DNA from: Candidatus Omnitrophota bacterium
GTDB lineage: Bacteria > Omnitrophota > Gorgyraeia > Tantalellales > Tantalellaceae
DNA: 37,104 bases
Assembly: GCA_043822245.1 (NCBI GenBank)
Contig: JBDRBY010000030.1
Coordinates: 1 to 37,104, forward strand
Direction of reading: 5' to 3'
Numbering within the stretch: position 1 is the first letter of the stretch; the number at the start of each line of letters is the position of its first letter. The notes beneath the pieces were generated by a model. It ran no database searches. It was not told where the DNA came from and saw only the letters and a list, made by a program, of their open reading frames with translations. Shown here piece after piece: positions 1-23,854 of this stretch. The translations under genes were made by a program, and so were the position numbers.

Positions 1-971
1 GTAACATTAGCGATATTTCTTACCTGATTAGTAAGATTCGCGGCCATGGTGTTGACGTTATCCGTTAACGCTTTCCATGTTCCGGCAACTCCCGGAACAG
101 CCGCCTGTCCGCCAAGTTTTCCTTCGGTTCCCACTTCTTTGGCAACGCGGGTAACTTCACTTCCAAACGCGTTCAAATTATCAACCATTCGATTGATTGT
201 ATTTTTAAGTTCCAAGACCTCACCGGATACGTTAACCGTGATTTTCTGAGATAAGTCTCCATTAGCGACCGCGGTGGTAACCGTGGCAATATTTCTTACC
301 TGGCTGGTAAGGTTTCCCGCCAAAGTATTAACGTTATCCGTTAGGTTTTTCCATATTCCGGCTACCCCTGGAACAGCCGCCTGGCCGCCAAGTTTTCCTT
401 CGGTTCCCACTTCTTTGGCAACGCGGGTAACCTCATTAGCGAATGTGTTGAGTGAATCAACCATGTTATTAATTGTATCTTTTAACTGCAGTATTTCGCC
501 TTGAGCCTCGACCGTGATCTTCTGTGAGAGGTCTCCTTTAGCTACCGCGGTGGTAACATTGGCGATATTTCTTACCTGGTTTGTTAAGTTCGCGGCTAAA
601 GTGTTGACGTTATCGGTTAAATCTTTCCATGTACCGGCAACACCCTCTACTTTTGCCTGTCCGCCGAGCTTTCCGTCGGTGCCGACTTCTTTTGCCACGC
701 GGGTAACTTCGCCGCCGAACCGGTTAAGAAGGTCAACCATACCGTTATAAGATTCCGCGAGATCTCCAAAAATATCTTCTCTACGGCTTTTAAGTTTTCT
801 TGTCAGATCTCCTTTTCGCACCGCCTCCATCGCTTCGAGAAGGTCTCTCAACTGCTGTTCCATTCCCTCAGCGCTCCCTACTCCTATCCCCCTTTCTACC
901 ACGGCTGTCCCTACTCCTCCTCCATCGTCAAACAATGCTTTTCTCGCCGGTTTCCTCAATGGTTCTGACAT
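1..971 (-). CDS. Multi-HAMP (poly-HAMP) signalling protein, N-terminal part; the C-terminus runs off the window start
   Basis: I translated the minus strand by hand. It starts at the ATG that is the complement of 969-971 ([16 protein letters not shown]...). After that come at least three ~76-aa tandem HAMP-type repeats, e.g. ...[60 protein letters not shown].... The plus-strand ORFs at 46-249, 274-504 and 514-750 are antisense translations of these repeats. There is no in-frame stop before position 1. Confidence 0.85.
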
Positions 972-3048: not shown

Positions 3049-3220
3049 GTAGAGACGCGATTTATCGCGTCTCTGTCTTTTCGGGTTTCATTTTTCATTG
3101 AGACGCGATGAATCGCGTCTCTACATTTTTGCGTTTCGTCCTTCATTGAGACGCGATGAATCGCGTCTCTACATTTTTGCGTTTCGTCCTTCATTGAGAC
3201 GCGATGAATCGCGTCTCTAC
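3049..3220. repeat. REP-like cluster: one copy at 3049-3075 and three direct 48-bp-period copies with a GA loop at 3098-3124, 3146-3172 and 3194-3220
   Basis: The unit TTGAGACGCGATGAATCGCGTCTCTAC plus ATTTTTGCGTTTCGTCCTTCA is repeated exactly three times. The last copy overlaps the stop codon of the 3217-4353 CDS. Confidence 0.9.
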
Positions 3221-9399: not shown

Positions 9400-9810
9400 T
9401 TAAAATCTGGCTATCACATAATCCACAAAACCCATCCCCACATAGATTAAATTATACAGATGATGCATGATAATCGCAATCATAGTCGAACCTGAAAATA
9501 TTACCGCAATGTTCCCTATAATTTTAGCTTCCACAAACACTGAATCAAACGGTATCCGCGCGAAGAGAGGATTTGTCCAACTGATCAGATTCAATATTAT
9601 CGTGTGTATGTGTATTGTGAGGTAATAAAACAGTTTTGGTTCTTTGGTAAGAATAAAAAAATGCGGCCATAAGAATTTCAGGACATTCGAGCCTAGATGG
9701 AAAGGATCATTAAACAAAAAAACACCGATAATCCCCGTCAAGACCAAAACATCCAAGATGGCCAAGCGTACATCACTTGATGTTTCCTTGGAACAATAGG
9801 CAAGCTCCAT
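9400..9810 (-). CDS. Hypothetical small integral membrane protein (~4 TM)
   Basis: Hydrophobic ORF. The track ORF 9400-9996 extends through two REP copies, whose translation gives DAINRVST and DAINLVST, so the real start is probably the internal Met at ~9810 or a non-ATG codon below 9899. Confidence 0.4.
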   Translation of the reverse strand: MELAYCSKETSSDVRLAILDVLVLTGIIGVFLFNDPFHLGSNVLKFLWPHFFILTKEPKLFYYLTIHIHTIILNLISWTNPLFARIPFDSVFVEAKIIGNIAVIFSGSTMIAIIMHHLYNLIYVGMGFVDYVIARF

Positions 9811-9898
9811 ATTGATATAATACCACGTTATGATGAAAAGAGGAAATATTTCCGGAAAGTGCCCATAATATGTTACACTATCGGAGGTGGTTATGTTT

Positions 9899-9974
9899 GT
9901 GGAGACAAGATTTATCGCGTCTTTACATTTCAGAATCATATCCGGCGTAGAGACGCGATTTATCGCGTCTTTAC
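9899..9974. repeat. REP-like pair at 9899-9926 (degenerate) and 9948-9974, plus a partial copy at 10062-10070
   Basis: GTGGAGACAAGATTTATCGCGTCTTTAC and GTAGAGACGCGATTTATCGCGTCTTTAC. Confidence 0.85.
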
Positions 9975-10097
9975 GTTTCGGGCGAGGGAAGGACAATCGC
10001 GGGAAGTTATCGGCAAAGGCATGCCTTTGCCCTCCGTTGCATCGCGTTATTTTTCCATCATGTAGAGACGTACTTGCGTAATGCTGATGAAGATTTT

Positions 10098-15956: not shown

Positions 15957-18102
15957 CTCCGCCTCCTTTCTGATTATTGAGTAAGTTAATCGCATCTTTA
16001 AAATGTCTCATGGCTATCTCTAGTCGCGGCTTCCCTCTGCTTGGTAATGACCGGCCGTTTATATATTCTCTTATTGCAAGCATAGCGGCCTTGCGGCAAA
16101 TAAATTCAATATCAGACCCTACTTTTTTATCCGTCTCTTTAGCGAGGCTCTTAAAATCAACATCCTCGGTAAGTGGTTTATTCCTAGTATGTATTTTGAA
16201 AATCTCTTCTCTGGTTTCCTCACTCGGCACGGACAGTTCGAATAAAAGGTCAAATCTTCCGCTTCTGAGCAAGGCCGGGTCAATTAAATCTATCCTATTG
16301 GTAGCGGCTAAGACCACCACTCCTCTAAGCTCTTCAATACCATCCATCTCTGTTAAAAACTGGCTTATCACCCTTTCCGTGACATGCGTACCGGTAGAAT
16401 CCGAACCGCGCCTGGGCACAAGGCTGTCTATCTCATCAAGAAAAAGTATTGTTGGCGCCGCTTGCTTCGCCTTTTTAAATATCTCCCTTACGCCCCGCTC
16501 CGATTCGCCGACATAACGATTCAAAAGCTCAGGGCCTTTAACAGAGATAAAGTTTACTCCGCTTTCCGAGGCAACCGCTTTGCCCAAGAGTGTTTTCCCC
16601 GTTCCCGGCTTACCATAAAGCAAGATTCCTTTAGGCGGCGAGGTGTTCGCTTTTTTGAAAACATCAGAATATTTAAGGGGCCACTCTATTATCTCTTTAA
16701 GTTCTTCCTTGACATCCTTAAGGCCCCCCACGTCACCCCATTTTACATTCGGCACTTCAACAAAAACTTCTCTAATAGCCGAGGGTTCTACCTCTTTCAT
16801 GGCTGCTAAAAAATCATCCATGGTTACTTCCAATTCCATCAAAGTCTCATAGGGGATATCAGCCATTTCAAAATCGATTTTAGGCAAAATCTTCCGCAGA
16901 GCCGCCATTGCCGCTTCTCTTGCTAATGCCTCCAAATCCGCTCCCACAAATCCATGAGTTATTTCCGATAACTTTTCTAAACCAACATCTTTTGCTAACG
17001 GCATACCTCTGGTATGAATTTGAAGCACCTCGTATCTCGCGTTTTTATCAGGGATAGGAATGGATATTTCTCTATCAAATCTCCCCGGCCGTCTTAGAGC
17101 CGGGTCTATAACATTTGGCAGATTGGTCGCGGCGATAACAATAACGTGGCCTCTGGATTCCAATCCATCCATTAACGCTAAAAGTTGAGAAACTACTCTA
17201 CGCTCAACCTGTTTTTCAGCGCCCATGTCTTCTCTTTTCGGAGCGATTGCCTCAATTTCATCTAAAAAGACGATGCTCGGAGCGTTGGCCTGGGCGTTTT
17301 GGAATATTGAACGTAAACGGCCTTCACTTTCTCCATAAAATTTTCCCATAATCTCCGGGCCGCTTATGCTGATAAAACACGCGTCAGTCTCATTCGCTAC
17401 TGCTCGGGCAATTAACGTTTTTCCCGTACCCGGGGGGCCATAGAGGAGTACCCCTTTGGGCGCGCCAATACCCAATCTCTCAAACACCTGAGGATATCTT
17501 AAAGGAAGCTCTATCATCTCTCTAATCCTTTGAATCTGCGTAGTGAGCCCGCCAATATCTTCATATGAAATCTTAGCCGGGCCCGCTTCCTTAACTTCCT
17601 CTACCTCAATTTTTATGAGGGTAGCCGGGCTTATTGAAACTATACCGCCGGGAACAGTATCCAATACCTTAAAATCACAAGATTTTGAACCAAAAAGCGC
17701 GGCTCTAACTCTGTCGCCACAAGTTACCGGCAGTCCTTCTATGAGAGAACCTATGTATTTACTGTCTTTGTCCTTCTGAAGAGAACCTGATAAAGTTAGC
17801 GGTGAAAGCCTGATTTTGTCCGCGGGTTTACAAACAACTTTCTTGATTTTTATCTTTTCATCTAATCCAACCCGCGCGTTTTCGCGTAAGATTCCGTCAA
17901 TCTGCGCGATCTTTTTTCCCCTTTCTTCGGCATAGCAGAGCATTACCTTAGCCGGAGTCTCTCTTTTTCCTTTAATCACCGCGATATCACCCGCTTCTAA
18001 TCCAAGGCTCTTCATATCTTCCGGATCGAGCCTGGCAACCGCCCTGCCTACATCCTTTGATAATGCCTCTTTTACTTTTAGTGTTAACGAATTGGCCGTC
18101 AT
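15949..18102 (-). CDS. CDC48/VCP-like double-ring AAA+ ATPase
   Basis: 717 aa. It has a CDC48 N-domain-like N-terminus and two AAA modules with Walker A motifs GPPGTGKTL and GKPGTGKTL, Walker B motifs FLDEID, and SRH regions ([22 protein letters not shown] and [19 protein letters not shown]). Confidence 0.9.
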
Positions 18103-18638
18103 TTCTGTACTCTAATTTCTAATATCCCGTTCCTATAATTTGATGTTAGGGTTTTGGCTTGAACTTTAGCCGGCAATAAGACTTCTTTGCGGTATTTTCT
18201 ATCCTTACTCACTGCTTTTATTTCCAATATATCCTCTTTTAAATCCAAGGAGATAGCTTCCTGTTTAACTCCCGGCATCTCCGCCATAACAACCACTTCA
18301 TCTTTCTCATTAAATATGTCAACAATCGGCTCTCTTTCTTCTTCAACCTTTGGCCCTTTAGGGGTTTTTTTAACATTACCAAAGGGTTCAACCACAGTCT
18401 TACCTCCCATGGCTGTTTTTACCGAAAACCCAAAAACCCCTTTCATGCCCTCTTTGAGACGGCCCAGGTCTATTTCTCCTTCTTTTTTAACTTCTCCTCC
18501 GGCCTCTTTTAAATCCCCTGCCAAATCAACTAATTTCTCAATACCACGGAATAATCCGCCTAAGCTTAATTTCCCTATACCAAAATCAAGATCTAAATCC
18601 TGTTTTTCGTTTTTGGTTTTTCTTTTGCCCTTGTTCAT
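18099..18638 (-). CDS. Hsp20/alpha-crystallin family protein with an N-terminal Lys/Gly-rich extension
   Basis: The C-terminal alpha-crystallin domain is [38 protein letters not shown]...[25 protein letters not shown]. It overlaps the CDC48-like start by 4 nt. Confidence 0.8.
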
Positions 18639-18694
18639 TTTCTTCCCCCCATTTCGCCTACATTTTTAGATTTTTCGAACATGAACCGTTTTTA

Positions 18695-18721
18695 TAGAGA
18701 CGCGATAAATCGCGTCTCTAC
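18695..18721. repeat. REP-like palindrome
   Basis: TAGAGACGCGATAAATCGCGTCTCTAC. Confidence 0.9.
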
Positions 18722-18737
18722 TGTACAAAACACAGCC

Positions 18738-18958
18738 CGCGAAATACCGCGCGACGTAAAAAACGTAATTCGCGAAACACCGCGCACCGTAAAAAACGTA
18801 ATCCGCGAAACACCGCGCACCGTAAAAAATGCAATCCGCGAAACACCGCGCACCGTAAAAAATGCAATCCGCGAAACACCGCACACCGTAAAAAATGCAA
18901 TCCGCGAAATACCGCGCGACGTAAAAAACGTTGCCAGCGAAATGTCGCATACCGTAAA
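18738..18958. repeat. 33-bp tandem repeat array (6 full units plus 1 degenerate unit) bracketed by REP hairpins
   Basis: The units start at 18738, 18771, 18804, 18837, 18870 and 18903. The consensus is CGCGAAACACCGCGCACCGTAAAAAATGCAATC. The outer units are the variant CGCGAAATACCGCGCGACGTAAAAAACGT..., giving an A-B-B-B-B-A arrangement. All six reading frames are open across the array, so the listed ORFs (18666-18950, 18681-18968 and others) are artefacts. Confidence 0.9.
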
Positions 18959-19027
18959 GACGCGATAAATCGCGTCGCTACCTTATATAATATGGCGCAC
19001 CGTAGAGACGCGATTTATCGCGTCTCC
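18956..19027. repeat. REP-like pair at 18956-18981 (degenerate) and 19002-19027
   Basis: AAAGACGCGATAAATCGCGTCGCTAC and GTAGAGACGCGATTTATCGCGTCTCC. Confidence 0.85.
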
Positions 19028-19037
19028 TTTAACCGAA

Positions 19038-19343
19038 CTAATAGCTTAGAGAGAACGTCTTAAGAGGTTTTGTGGTTAATTTTACAGAGGGTTTAACCTT
19101 TTTCTCTTGCGATGTTTCTTCTTGAGAATTTTCAATTCGTTTAAGAATTTCATCTAGTTGTTTTTCCGCCCTATCTTTCCTCTTACTTAAGCCAAACACC
19201 TCTTTTTCCAATCTATCCTTTTCTCTTCTGAGAATGTACAGCTCCAAATAACCCGATCTTTGGATTTTTGGGATAGAACCCGTGCCTATGCTATGAATAC
19301 TCTTTATATCACTAGTCCCTGCGATTTGTAACATCCCTTTCAT
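19038..19343 (-). CDS. Hypothetical charged/coiled-coil protein (101 aa), downstream of and co-oriented with gvpN
   Basis: Clean ORF 15 nt after the gvpN stop. No recognised family. It has a GvpG-like charged helical character but a different N-terminus. Confidence 0.55.
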   Translation of the reverse strand: MKGMLQIAGTSDIKSIHSIGTGSIPKIQRSGYLELYILRREKDRLEKEVFGLSKRKDRAEKQLDEILKRIENSQEETSQEKKVKPSVKLTTKPLKTFSLSY

Positions 19344-19358
19344 CTGTCAGTCCCCCTT

Positions 19359-20330
19359 TTATACGAAAACTTCATCAACTTTTAGTGTCTCTTCCTCTGT
19401 AACCTCTCTGATAGCGCATACTTCGACCAACCCTTGAACTATATCTTTTACCTTGGATTGATTCGTCTTTGACCCGACCCTGCTTGTCTCAGACGCTAGT
19501 ATATCCTGGCATATTTGCGCGAAGGCCTTGTTCGATTTCCCCGGAGATATGTTCAGCACTTTAAGAGTTTTAGCGATCATAATACATCCGCGGACTGTCG
19601 GCGCGAATTCACATTTTCCGGATTCTCTCAATCCTCTCACAATATTCACTATCGTTTCCGCGTATCTTTTGGAAAGCTTAGATTTTGCCCGGGTTATAGC
19701 CACCTCCGTCTCATAATCAAAACAATCTAAATCCATTGTTATCATCCTGTCCCTCAAAGCGTCCTGGCTTCTGTGGACTCCGGCATATTCCTCCGGGTTA
19801 GAGGTAAAAATAGCGGTAAAATTAGGGTCAACCCTCAAATATGGTTCTTCACCGCCCCGCCCCACCGGCAAATCCATCATCTTTTCCTGTAAAATGGAAA
19901 GAAGGATATTGTTTGCCTCAGGCCGTGAACGGGTAAATTCGTCATAAATCAAAGTGAACCCGTATCTGCAAGCAACTGTTAAACGATTATCTACCCAGCG
20001 TTTTACCATATCTTCTTCTGTTTTTAACACCCTGGAGATAAACCTATCCACTACTTTTCTAACCCTGTAACCATATTCACCACCGACTAAATCCGATGTA
20101 GTAAATTCTTCATCTCCATGAATCATCACAACGGGCCTCGCTATTTTGCCGGCAATGTGCATAGCCATAGTAGTTTTGCCTGTACCGGAAACTCCCCGAA
20201 AATGAATGGGAAAACCCGCTTTAATGTAGGAAAGGGCTCTTCTGGTAACATCTTTGACGTATTTCGTCTCCACAAAGTCAGGTAAAGCGCTGGGTTCCAG
20301 CACTGTTGTCATTTCATCTATCATTTTCAC
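19359..20330 (-). CDS. gvpN: GvpN AAA+ ATPase (CbbQ/NirQ/GvpN family)
   Basis: 323 aa. It has the Walker A motif GVSGTGKTT, a Walker B motif LIYDEF and a MoxR/CbbQ-like arrangement. It follows the A-C-N gene order seen in other gvp clusters. It starts at GTG 20330, or at ATG 20324. Confidence 0.88.
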   Translation of the reverse strand: MKMIDEMTTVLEPSALPDFVETKYVKDVTRRALSYIKAGFPIHFRGVSGTGKTTMAMHIAGKIARPVVMIHGDEEFTTSDLVGGEYGYRVRKVVDRFISRVLKTEEDMVKRWVDNRLTVACRYGFTLIYDEFTRSRPEANNILLSILQEKMMDLPVGRGGEEPYLRVDPNFTAIFTSNPEEYAGVHRSQDALRDRMITMDLDCFDYETEVAITRAKSKLSKRYAETIVNIVRGLRESGKCEFAPTVRGCIMIAKTLKVLNISPGKSNKAFAQICQDILASETSRVGSKTNQSKVKDIVQGLVEVCAIREVTEEETLKVDEVFV

Positions 20331-20462
20331 TCACCTCCTATTTTTCCCCATCGAGGAAATAACCCCTTTGCCGCCGCAAACCTGGCAATTCGCGAGTTTA
20401 GAAAGAAAATCAAAAGGATCTTTGCCTTTACCATGGCAAAATGCGCGCCCTATCTTTTTCAT
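20331..20462 (-). CDS. Candidate 43-aa zinc-ribbon micro-protein (MKKIGRAFCHGKGKDPFDFLSKLANCQVCGGKGVISSMGKNRR)
   Basis: I translated it by hand. It has a CxH...CxxC motif. Its TGA stop directly abuts the gvpN GTG start. It starts 24 nt downstream of the GvpC-like gene. It is too short for the ORF track. Confidence 0.45.
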   Translation of the reverse strand: MKKIGRAFCHGKGKDPFDFLSKLANCQVCGGKGVISSMGKNRR

Positions 20463-23090: not shown

Positions 23091-23213
23091 TTGAGACGCG
23101 ATAAATCGCGTCTCTACATTTCAGAATCATATCCGGTGTAGAGACGCGATTTATCGCGTCTTTACATCTCAGAATCATATCCGGTGTAGAGACGCGATAA
23201 ATCGCGTCTTTAC
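23091..23213. repeat. REP-like triplet in alternating orientation with a 47-bp period (23091-23117, 23138-23165, 23185-23213)
   Basis: Each copy is followed by the conserved ATTTCAGAATCATATCCGGT spacer. The last copy overlaps the stop of the 23210-23854 CDS. Confidence 0.9.
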
Positions 23214-23854
23214 ATTTCAGCTCCGTCTACCGTTTTCATGTTTTCCGGTGTAGAGGAGGGTTCGCTGGGGTTTTCTTCCGGGAGAGGTTTGTCTGAGATT
23301 AGGTTGCTATTTACGAGATCGGATTCTTTGGGGTCTCCGTAGAGGCCTAACAATTGGAAGATATTTTTGTTAACAATGTAAACTTCTTTTGAGCCGGGTT
23401 TTCTTAAGAATGAACTTCCATATCCAGGGGTTTTCGTGCCCGCCAGAAATGTTTCTTTGACATTACCGTCTTTGTCTAACGCTTCTATGATAACCGCTTC
23501 TTCGTCAGAAATGCCGTAATCCGCTAGGAGTTCCGCATCACTTGAGCGCAGTTCCCCTTTCAAGCCGGCTATTTCTTTTATAAAGTTTTCTATTTTTTCC
23601 GCGTCAGCCTGTTTGTTTTCGTGAGAAGAAACTTGCCACTGGCCTTGCTCGTCTTTTTTTAATTCCAAAGAATCCTCTTTTTCTCCTGTCTTACGTACCT
23701 CTATGATGTGAACATCCGAGGGGTTAATTTGAATTTGAAGGCTTTTGTATTCCGTTTCAAAAATCTCCGGTTTAAAAAATGTTTTCTTCGCGATTGTTAC
23801 GGCCAAAAGAACGGCGAATATGATTCCTAAAATTAAGATATGTTTAAACTTCAT
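23210..23854 (-). CDS. Membrane-anchored protein with an N-terminal TM helix, possibly DUF4340-like and GldG-associated
   Basis: MKFKHILILGIIFAVLLAVTIA is a signal anchor. The gene lies downstream of the GldG-like gene in the same orientation. The start was moved to the internal Met because the upstream residues are REP-derived. The family call is weak. Confidence 0.5.
   Translation of the reverse strand: MKFKHILILGIIFAVLLAVTIAKKTFFKPEIFETEYKSLQIQINPSDVHIIEVRKTGEKEDSLELKKDEQGQWQVSSHENKQADAEKIENFIKEIAGLKGELRSSDAELLADYGISDEEAVIIEALDKDGNVKETFLAGTKTPGYGSSFLRKPGSKEVYIVNKNIFQLLGLYGDPKESDLVNSNLISDKPLPEENPSEPSSTPENMKTVDGAEM

Follow-up and report, generated by a model that had tools for sequence, protein, structure and literature searches.

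We describe a 33-bp tandem repeat array that lies among palindromic repeats in a gas-vesicle operon, in a short-read contig of 37,104 bp (the whole of which we call the window) from a metagenome-assembled genome (MAG) with the NCBI name Candidatus Omnitrophota. Our analysis suggests that the array is probably a non-coding minisatellite derived from a repetitive extragenic palindrome (REP), placed in a cluster that resembles the bacterial interspersed mosaic elements (BIMEs), and that it does not itself have a function. Structures of this kind are known; the array is slightly atypical, since its amplified modules have lost the palindrome.

The array and its REP caps

The array spans 18723–18953 and consists of seven units, V1–V7, arranged head-to-tail over 231 nt. 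Tandem Repeats Finder (TRF) placed it at 18723–18930 with a period of 33, 6.3 copies, 89% matches and a score of 297; a repeat search returned seven in-register copies at a spacing of exactly 33 bp; and the unit pattern matched six sites in the window at three or fewer mismatches, as against none in 100 shuffles. These results agree on the existence of an array that had been described in an earlier note, made from the letters alone, in whose register six units start at 18741, 18774, 18807, 18840, 18873 and 18906 and the decayed one, the seventh, at 18939. Both unit 1 and unit 6 are of the variant GAAATACCGCGCGACGTAAAAAACGT; units 2–5 follow GAAACACCGC(G/A)CACCGTAAAAAA(CGT/TGC)AATCCGC, with units 3 and 4 identical; and the order along the array is A, B', B, B, B*, A, decayed, which bears out the arrangement A-B-B-B-B-A proposed in the note. 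In the register of V1–V7 the unit reads GTAAAAAA(C/T)G(T/C)AATCCGCGAAACACCGCGCACC, and the alignment of the seven units has a mean column identity of 88%, the inner units being nearly identical and the outer ones diverged. A diverged edge with a near-identical centre is the pattern expected from slippage or unequal exchange, and head-to-tail units of 10–100 bp with high identity are what characterizes a minisatellite. Each unit contains CCGCG motifs 11 bp apart and an A6 tract; the REP palindrome occurs in none of the seven, each of which keeps only a CGCG hairpin of 4–5 pairs.

Three REP copies flank the array, as the earlier note had recognized for the palindromic caps. Copy 1 (18695–18722) is a 28-nt palindrome, TAGAGACGCGAT-AA-ATCGCGTCTCTA(C), that matches the 22-mer REP core exactly; its arms (18695–18706 and 18709–18720) are 100% complementary, and its GTAG tag lies on the minus strand at the array-facing end. 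Copy 2 (18954–18981, GTAAAGACGCGATAAATCGCGTCGCTAC) is slightly degenerate, with two mismatches to the core and arms that form an inverted repeat; it shares the 33-bp register of the array and opens a 48-bp REP module that ends at 19001. The remainder of this module, a spacer of 20 nt (18982–19001), ends in GCGCACC, as do the 33-bp units. Copy 3 (19002–19026, GTAGAGACGCGATTTATCGCGTCTC) matches the REP exactly on the minus strand, has the opposite orientation to copy 1 and is situated 11 nt beyond the stop codon of a 101-aa gene. At 18695–18720 and 19005–19026, the arms of 10–12 nt are 100% complementary and enclose a 2-nt loop. Copy 2 has the loop AA and its tag on the right; copy 3, at a distance of 48 bp, has the loop TT and its tag on the left. 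The stretch 18695–19026 has the regularly spaced REPs of alternating orientation that are typical of BIMEs. The REP of a canonical BIME recurs in every reiterated module; because the seven 33-bp units lack the palindrome, we file the array as a derivative inside a REP cluster rather than as a canonical BIME.

The flanking palindrome belongs to a high-copy family. The palindrome GAGACGCGATAAATCGCGTCTC occurs at no fewer than 22 sites in the window, as against none in 100 shuffles, and the core gives 22 exact sites (46 strand matches) in the 37 kb. The consensus, GTAGAGACGCGAT-WW-ATCGCGTCTCTAC, is a stem-loop of the size expected of REPs (palindromes of 20–40 bp), and the copies in the window lie between genes, save for two within a doubtful open reading frame (ORF) at 9400–9996, in keeping with a high-copy extragenic element. 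The REPs often build tandem modules of 48 or 65 bp (2457–2641, 3052–3220 and 23093–23220), and in the REP-containing arrays of the window the “spacers” are also near-identical (84–91% matches by TRF). Most copies of the window, and 129 aligned copies from metagenomes, have the tetranucleotide GTAG (CTAC when read on the opposite strand) directly next to the stem. GTAG at the foot of the hairpin defines the GTAG REP super-family and is needed by the nuclease of the E. coli REP-associated tyrosine transposase (RAYT) (PMC3733652, PMC3479197).

The same REP is found far beyond the window. More than 120 metagenome contigs, with GC contents of 29–58%, contain the exact 25-mer GTAGAGACGCGATTTATCGCGTCTC; in these contigs the palindrome alone is conserved and the flanks are unrelated. 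Eight of the 120 REP contigs that were retrieved (L081–L200) encode a Y1/HUH transposase-like protein with REPs both upstream and downstream; the protein of contig L088, the one of the eight that was scanned against Pfam, scores 25.8 bits on PF01797, above the cutoff of 23 bits. This arrangement, a RAYT gene flanked by the same REP, is that of a REPtron, here in metagenome contigs, and since Y1/HUH transposase genes are flanked by the very REP that caps the array, the caps are, as judged from these gene neighbourhoods, true REPs of the RAYT type.

Two sets of REP copies fall inside reading frames. In the window, the start region of ORF 9400–9996 (minus strand, 198 aa, no Pfam match) crosses two REPs at 9902–9971, which are translated as KDAINRVST and KDAINLVST; either the gene call itself or the position of its start is in doubt. 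In seven of the eight RAYT-like Y1 genes, the ORF reads through one to three REP copies, which are placed between the HUH motif and the region of the catalytic tyrosine and encode VETRFIAS or RDAINRVST, depending on orientation (e.g. L088:213–1600, L095:5647–6673, L121:321–1030, L133:3433–4165 and L193:3915–4860); these genes match the L088 protein at only 41–57% amino-acid identity. REPs are usually held to be species-specific and extragenic. A literature search with the REP sequence and the encoded peptides as strings found no mention of either. This REP is thus the same to the nucleotide in contigs that differ widely in base composition, is carried in frame in its presumptive transposase gene and repeatedly seeds arrays; if these observations hold up, they are in conflict with the usual view of REPs as species-specific.

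Origin of the 33-bp unit

Tandem arrays accompany this REP in other contigs as well. We ran TRF on 120 unrelated REP contigs and counted arrays with a period of at least 12 (n=108): 29 of the 108 lie within 60 bp of a REP, whereas random placement within the same contigs yields 5.6 ± 2.3 (maximum 14 in 2000 trials). In 16 of the 29 REP-adjacent arrays the units lack the full palindrome, and six arrays have REPs on both sides, as in the window. L132, for example, has the layout REP, 18 bp × 6.8, inverted REP; in L183, 14-bp half-REP units adjoin a REP and a 21-bp × 14.8 array lies 70 bp away; and in L088, arrays of 62 bp and about 48 bp surround the transposase gene. As a separate observation, many of these arrays have units that repeat only the 3' arm of the palindrome (e.g. 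ATCGCGTCTC plus 8–9 nt in L151, L181 and L183), which resembles a specific signature of duplication at the hairpin.

The 33-bp unit is related to the REP module that adjoins it. Read from GTA, the unit is GTAAAAAA...GCGCACC; the next 48 nt (18954–19001) are GTAAAGACGCGATAAATCGCGTCGCTACC...GGCGCACC, and REP copy 3 follows directly. In a gap-tolerant global alignment, a comparison picked after inspection of the sequence, the unit consensus scores 21.4 against the 48-bp module, as compared with −4.2 ± 4.3 for shuffles, none of 2000 of which reaches that score; when the shared GCGCACC end is left out, one of 2000 does. The 10-nt junction GCGCACCGTA has four occurrences in the window (chance expectation 0.02), three of them at unit boundaries and one at 18995–19004, just before REP copy 3. 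The length arithmetic also fits: one REP arm plus the loop amounts to 15 nt, and 48 − 15 = 33. The evidence that the unit may have arisen from the local 48-bp REP module by deletion is good but not decisive.

Our reading of these observations is a sequence of four steps. A REP cluster would first have colonized the short spacer between the 101-aa gene (p101) and hsp20 of an otherwise widespread and compact gas-vesicle operon; one “REP plus spacer” module of the 48-bp size typical of this genome would then have lost about 15 nt and with them most of the palindrome; the resulting 33-bp module would have been amplified head-to-tail, either by hairpin-promoted replication slippage or unequal exchange, or by RAYT nicking and strand transfer; and the youngest, near-identical copies would have come to lie at the centre and the older, diverged copies at the edges, which would give the order A-B-B-B-B-A. 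Any effect on the operon would be indirect only, through 231 nt of extra spacer and small hairpins placed between strong REP hairpins just 3' of the upstream gene. The identity of the REP, the recurrence of arrays next to it, the kinship of unit and REP module, the missing coding and RNA signals and the absence of the array from orthologous clusters are what the analysis shows; the order of these events, the mechanism of duplication and the lack of function are what we infer.

The locus shares features with several known repeat systems. Like BIMEs and REP clusters (BIME-2 and atypical BIMEs of E. coli; the “grouped elements” of GTAG REPs; Di Nocera et al. 2013, PMC3733652; Nunvar et al. 2010, PMC2817692), it consists of dispersed, intergenic, GTAG-tagged palindromes between unidirectional genes; it has REPs of opposite orientation at a regular 48-bp spacing (18954/19002) and modules reiterated in tandem together with flanking DNA, and length polymorphism would be expected. 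It differs from these clusters in that the seven amplified modules have lost the palindrome, so that most of the array is free of REPs. The REP itself also differs from theirs: it is not species-specific, the identical 25-mer being present over the whole GC range given above.

A REPIN comprises two inverted REPs and a spacer, mobilized by a RAYT (Bertels and Rainey 2011, PMC3116915). The outer REPs of the array are likewise inverted, the region of copy 3 (18999–19026) being 96% complementary to 18697–18724 over 28 nt, with a single long stem predicted, and in related contigs this REP also flanks genes of the RAYT type; however, the spacer here measures 274 nt and holds a tandem array and a third REP, whereas described REP dimers have spacers of 20–100 bp (PMC3733652), and the likeness by pairing of the outer REPs is weak, since each REP is palindromic and any two copies can pair. 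The array further resembles the minisatellite or variable-number tandem repeat (VNTR) loci used in multiple-locus VNTR analysis, with head-to-tail units of 10–100 bp, an intergenic position, a homogenized centre, diverged edges and an expected variation in copy number; it differs from them in that its origin is tied to a mobile REP family and in that the array is known here from one genome. BIMEs are reported to be exceptionally length-polymorphic and to serve in strain typing (PMC2817692), the inner units of the array are nearly identical, and variation in its copy number, as the earlier note had suggested in calling it a possible VNTR, is compatible with an origin from REPs and likely.

Coding, RNA and DNA readings of the array

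The earlier note had stated that no frame across the array contains a stop codon; five of the six frames are indeed open, but frame 2 of the plus strand carries a TAA in each unit, eight stops in all. The longest ORFs are one of 95 aa on the plus strand (18681–18968, with RETPRTVKNAI repeats) and one of 94 aa on the minus strand (18666–18950, with FYGARCFADCI repeats); two further, shorter minus-strand ORFs lie in the array. The open frames, a period that is a multiple of 3, and weak, sub-threshold Pfam matches of the plus-strand ORF to repeat-helix families (ApoLp-III at 19.5 bits against a cutoff of 36.3 bits, and DUF948) could be taken to indicate a small protein with 11-aa repeats, either an amphipathic gas-vesicle accessory peptide or the precursor of a multi-core peptide. 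However, a search of 5.8 billion protein clusters returned no homologue, nor even a self match, for the main translation of either the plus or the minus strand, and therefore the deposited annotation called no gene across the array; Hsp20 of the same contig is present in that database. Codon usage is poor in all frames: the best array frames have log-odds of 0.054 and 0.066, whereas true coding 198-nt windows of the contig have 0.29 ± 0.11, with a 5th percentile of 0.116. No Shine-Dalgarno sequence precedes the start of either ORF; both long ORFs start or end within REP palindromes; the plus-strand ORF is antisense to the whole operon; and by manual count only about 3 of 11 differences between units are synonymous in the plus frame. 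The array ORFs thus lack the start, ribosome-binding site, host-like codons and homologues that would mark a coding gene, the note's judgement that coding is unlikely stands, and we consider it very unlikely that the array is coding and extremely improbable that it specifies an 11-aa repeat protein of the kind just described.

A likeness to GvpC, with its 33-residue repeats, and to amphipathic 11-mer repeat proteins was considered separately, given the gas-vesicle setting, the number 33 and the period of 11 codons; it was rejected, the period here being 33 bp and not 33 residues, and the missing homologues, poor codons, absent ribosome-binding site and antisense position of the plus-strand ORF applying here as well.

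On the sense (minus) strand, each unit comprises CGCGGUGUUUCGCG, a 5-pair hairpin with one G-U pair, followed by GAUUGCA and UUUUUU. A lenient scan for terminator-like elements over 18000–19500 gave 9 matches, as compared with 1.2 ± 1.1 in shuffles; eight of the nine fall in the array, where every unit is flagged, always on the minus strand. This raises the possibility of an RNA attenuator or insulator, in which seven weak terminator or pause modules between strong REP hairpins would lower or tune the read-through from gvpN and p101 into hsp20, cdc48 and the gvpF/L genes, the copy number setting the ratio. The hairpin is kept in the decayed V7 through a change from G-U to A-U; the 399-nt spacer folds better than shuffles on the sense strand (z = −5.5); and REPs are described in the literature as favouring Rho-dependent termination and functioning as RNA elements (PMC2817692, PMC3733652). 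However, the eight matches in the array represent one repeated sequence, which makes them one independent observation rather than eight; the U6 run begins 8 nt past the short stem, so that the geometry is unlike that of a canonical intrinsic terminator; over the seven units the hairpin shows two one-sided changes and no compensatory change or other covariation, no pair having changed on both sides; the fold is better on the antisense strand (z = −7.1) and is driven by the REP palindromes, the outer two of which pair with each other in the predicted fold of both strands; and related clusters all lack the array, most of them with a gap shorter than 125 bp. Searches of the whole window against Rfam gave no match at gathering thresholds, and with a permissive E-value all matches in 18500–19200 scored far below the gathering scores. 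We therefore regard an attenuator of this kind as unlikely, and consider its more specific form, in which seven hairpin and U-tract modules of variable copy number set transcription or mRNA survival from gvpN/p101 into hsp20-cdc48-gvpF/L, a long shot. If that form were true, slippage in the array would amount to a heritable and reversible tuning of gas-vesicle assembly, and a second, unrelated repeat found at the same site in a relative (below) would have met the same need independently.

An RNA thermometer or known small RNA upstream of hsp20 found no support in Rfam and was rejected, and a promoter scan found no sigma-70-like site in the array.

At the level of DNA, the regular 33-bp period, the CCGCG motifs and the A6 tract could instead form an array of sites for a regulator, a nucleoid protein, gyrase or an iteron-binding protein, which, bound upstream of hsp20, would control the downstream sub-operon or the local topology; E. 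coli BIMEs are bound by IHF, gyrase and Pol I (PMC2817692). Against this, no other copy of the unit was found in the window or in the collections searched, which would require a dedicated regulator with a single target. Exact-pattern scans of genome, metagenome and viral contig collections returned no match to the unit pattern; blastn found no plasmid match; and with blastn-short, the fetched loci (1.76 Mb) and the masked window yielded nothing beyond chance-level matches of 20 nt or less. The earlier note had read the 33-bp period as about three helical turns. With 10.5 bp to the turn, a 33-bp unit does not make up a whole number of turns: each unit rotates by 51 degrees relative to the previous one and the vector sum of seven units is zero, so the phases cancel, and we rejected planar curvature through phased A6 tracts as well. 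Scanned neighbours include no replication-initiator gene, and orthologous clusters lack the array. An array of DNA sites is thus improbable to a still higher degree than the tunable attenuator.

Two named candidates were also set aside: an iteron array, for want of a plasmid match and of a replication-initiator gene among the scanned neighbours, and an array of clustered regularly interspaced short palindromic repeats (CRISPR), as the units abut without spacers and no cas domain was present among the scanned neighbours. Taken together, the proposal of the earlier note that the array consists of protein-binding sites or forms a structured regulatory RNA finds no backing in Rfam, in compensatory changes, in further copies of the unit or in the comparison of about 60 related clusters, and a regulatory reading of the array is unsupported.

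The gas-vesicle operon and its relatives

The genes around the array all lie on the minus strand, in the order gvpN, p101, array, hsp20/gvpH, cdc48 and two gvpF/L. The gene gvpN (19359–20330; AAA_5 ATPase, Pfam AAA_5 3.2e-18) served as synteny anchor. It is followed by p101 (19038–19343), a conserved 101-aa coiled-coil gene that we traced by tblastn in related loci; p101 comes directly after gvpN in most of the loci L001–L080 and in L202, and borders the array on its upstream side, as read on the sense strand. Directly downstream of the array on that strand is the hsp20/gvpH-like gene (18099–18638; Pfam HSP20 2.6e-8, GvpH 2.4e-6; 2753 homologues), which has its own ribosome-binding site, GGGGGGAAG. 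The placement in the earlier note, between the hsp20 and gvpN sub-operons, is thus right for the hsp20 side, but the gene on the other side is p101 and not gvpN.

GvpN is 80–88% identical in 255 related loci across many phyla, and about 60 of the 80 loci that were fetched have kept the order gvpN-p101-hsp20. In these approximately 60 syntenic clusters, the gap between p101 and hsp20 is mostly shorter than about 125 bp, or else about 450–680 bp; neither the REP nor the unit occurs in any of the 80 GvpN-anchored loci. One longer gap, that of L202, was read and holds a 126-aa ORF for a CxxC zinc ribbon with DnaJ-like CxxCxGxG repeats, where the window has the REPs and the array. Because the array is absent from related clusters in which the gap is mostly short, we take the REP cluster and the array to be a lineage-specific insertion into a normally tight operon junction. 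The earlier note had named the absence of the array from otherwise identical clusters, with no change in expression, as a finding that would refute it; the roughly 60 clusters without the array come close to this, but with GvpN at only 80–88% identity they are not otherwise identical.

The possibility that the spacer of the window is a remnant of the zinc-ribbon gene was rejected: tblastn found no trace of it in 18639–19037, and the sole similarity is a minus-strand 43-aa CxxC ORF just upstream of gvpN (20331–20462), which resembles part of the zinc-ribbon ORF at L202:1016–1396 (40% identity over 35 aa, E 1e-4). In L001–L080, GvpN at 80–88% identity and the kept gene order extend over MAGs that bear the labels Nitrospinota, Omnitrophota, Planctomycetota, Elusimicrobiota, Desantisbacteria, Thermodesulfobacteriota and others, which suggests that this type of gas-vesicle cluster has spread horizontally and widely among anaerobic lineages of sediment and groundwater.

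The closest relative that was found, L201 (a Logan contig of 1415 bp with an Hsp20 88% identical to that of the window), has, directly upstream of hsp20, a tandem repeat (about 31 bp; GGGGCCTCAGAATGACGGATGG..., L201:1–106) that is not related to the 33-bp array, and the contig ends inside this repeat. The break of the nearest relative's contig in its own repeat at the same site is one of the points that would fit an assembly artefact, in which the copy number or the order of variants was distorted by collapse, expansion or a chimeric join of REP-rich regions; others are that the contig comes from a MAG and that the array of 231 bp contains two identical units and is flanked by a repeat that recurs at least 22 times in 37 kb. 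As short reads underlie this MAG contig, the assembly may have the wrong number of identical inner units. However, the ordered variant units give unique paths through most of the array; the gene order on both sides is that of about 60 related clusters, so the join is not chimeric; and the layout REP-array-REP also occurs in independently assembled REP contigs. An artefact that distorted the array or its copy number is quite unlikely, slightly more so than the simple attenuator discussed above.

Several points weigh against reading the array as a REP-derived minisatellite devoid of function. There is no RAYT gene within the window, and for this genome the link between REP and transposase rests on other contigs. 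The unit is not recognizable as a degenerate 28-nt REP, a derivation that we rejected: against the 28-nt consensus alone, its score is reached by 162 of 1000 shuffles when any rotation is allowed and by 218 of 1000 when the register is fixed, and the derivation from the 48-bp module comes from a test chosen with the sequence in view. The lack of function is argued from negative evidence only; the excess of terminator-like matches points in the other direction, and the unit hairpin with its U6 run could still have an effect at the level of the transcript. Finally, the repeat of L201 could mean that the site tolerates repeats, or that repeats are selected for there. We nevertheless consider a non-coding, REP-derived minisatellite the probable explanation.

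Two other repeats of the window were noted apart from the array. At 1–740 (minus strand), a repeat with a period of 276 bp is coding, with 92-aa repeats, in a gene that runs off the start of the window; by eye we take these repeats to resemble the tandem HAMP domains of a sensor protein. At 2037–2098, a perfect (TTGC) × 15.5 microsatellite lies between genes, about 150 bp upstream of a ParA-like gene (1055–1885), and could be a slippage-prone contingency tract.

In conclusion, the locus is a likely breakpoint in short-read assemblies, and the open frames that run through the array should not be called in annotation. For this Omnitrophota lineage the locus is likely to be a length-polymorphic marker for strain typing. 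For the gas-vesicle cluster, our analysis removes an apparent regulatory element: the only large gap of the operon would be the debris of a mobile repeat, which related clusters lack.

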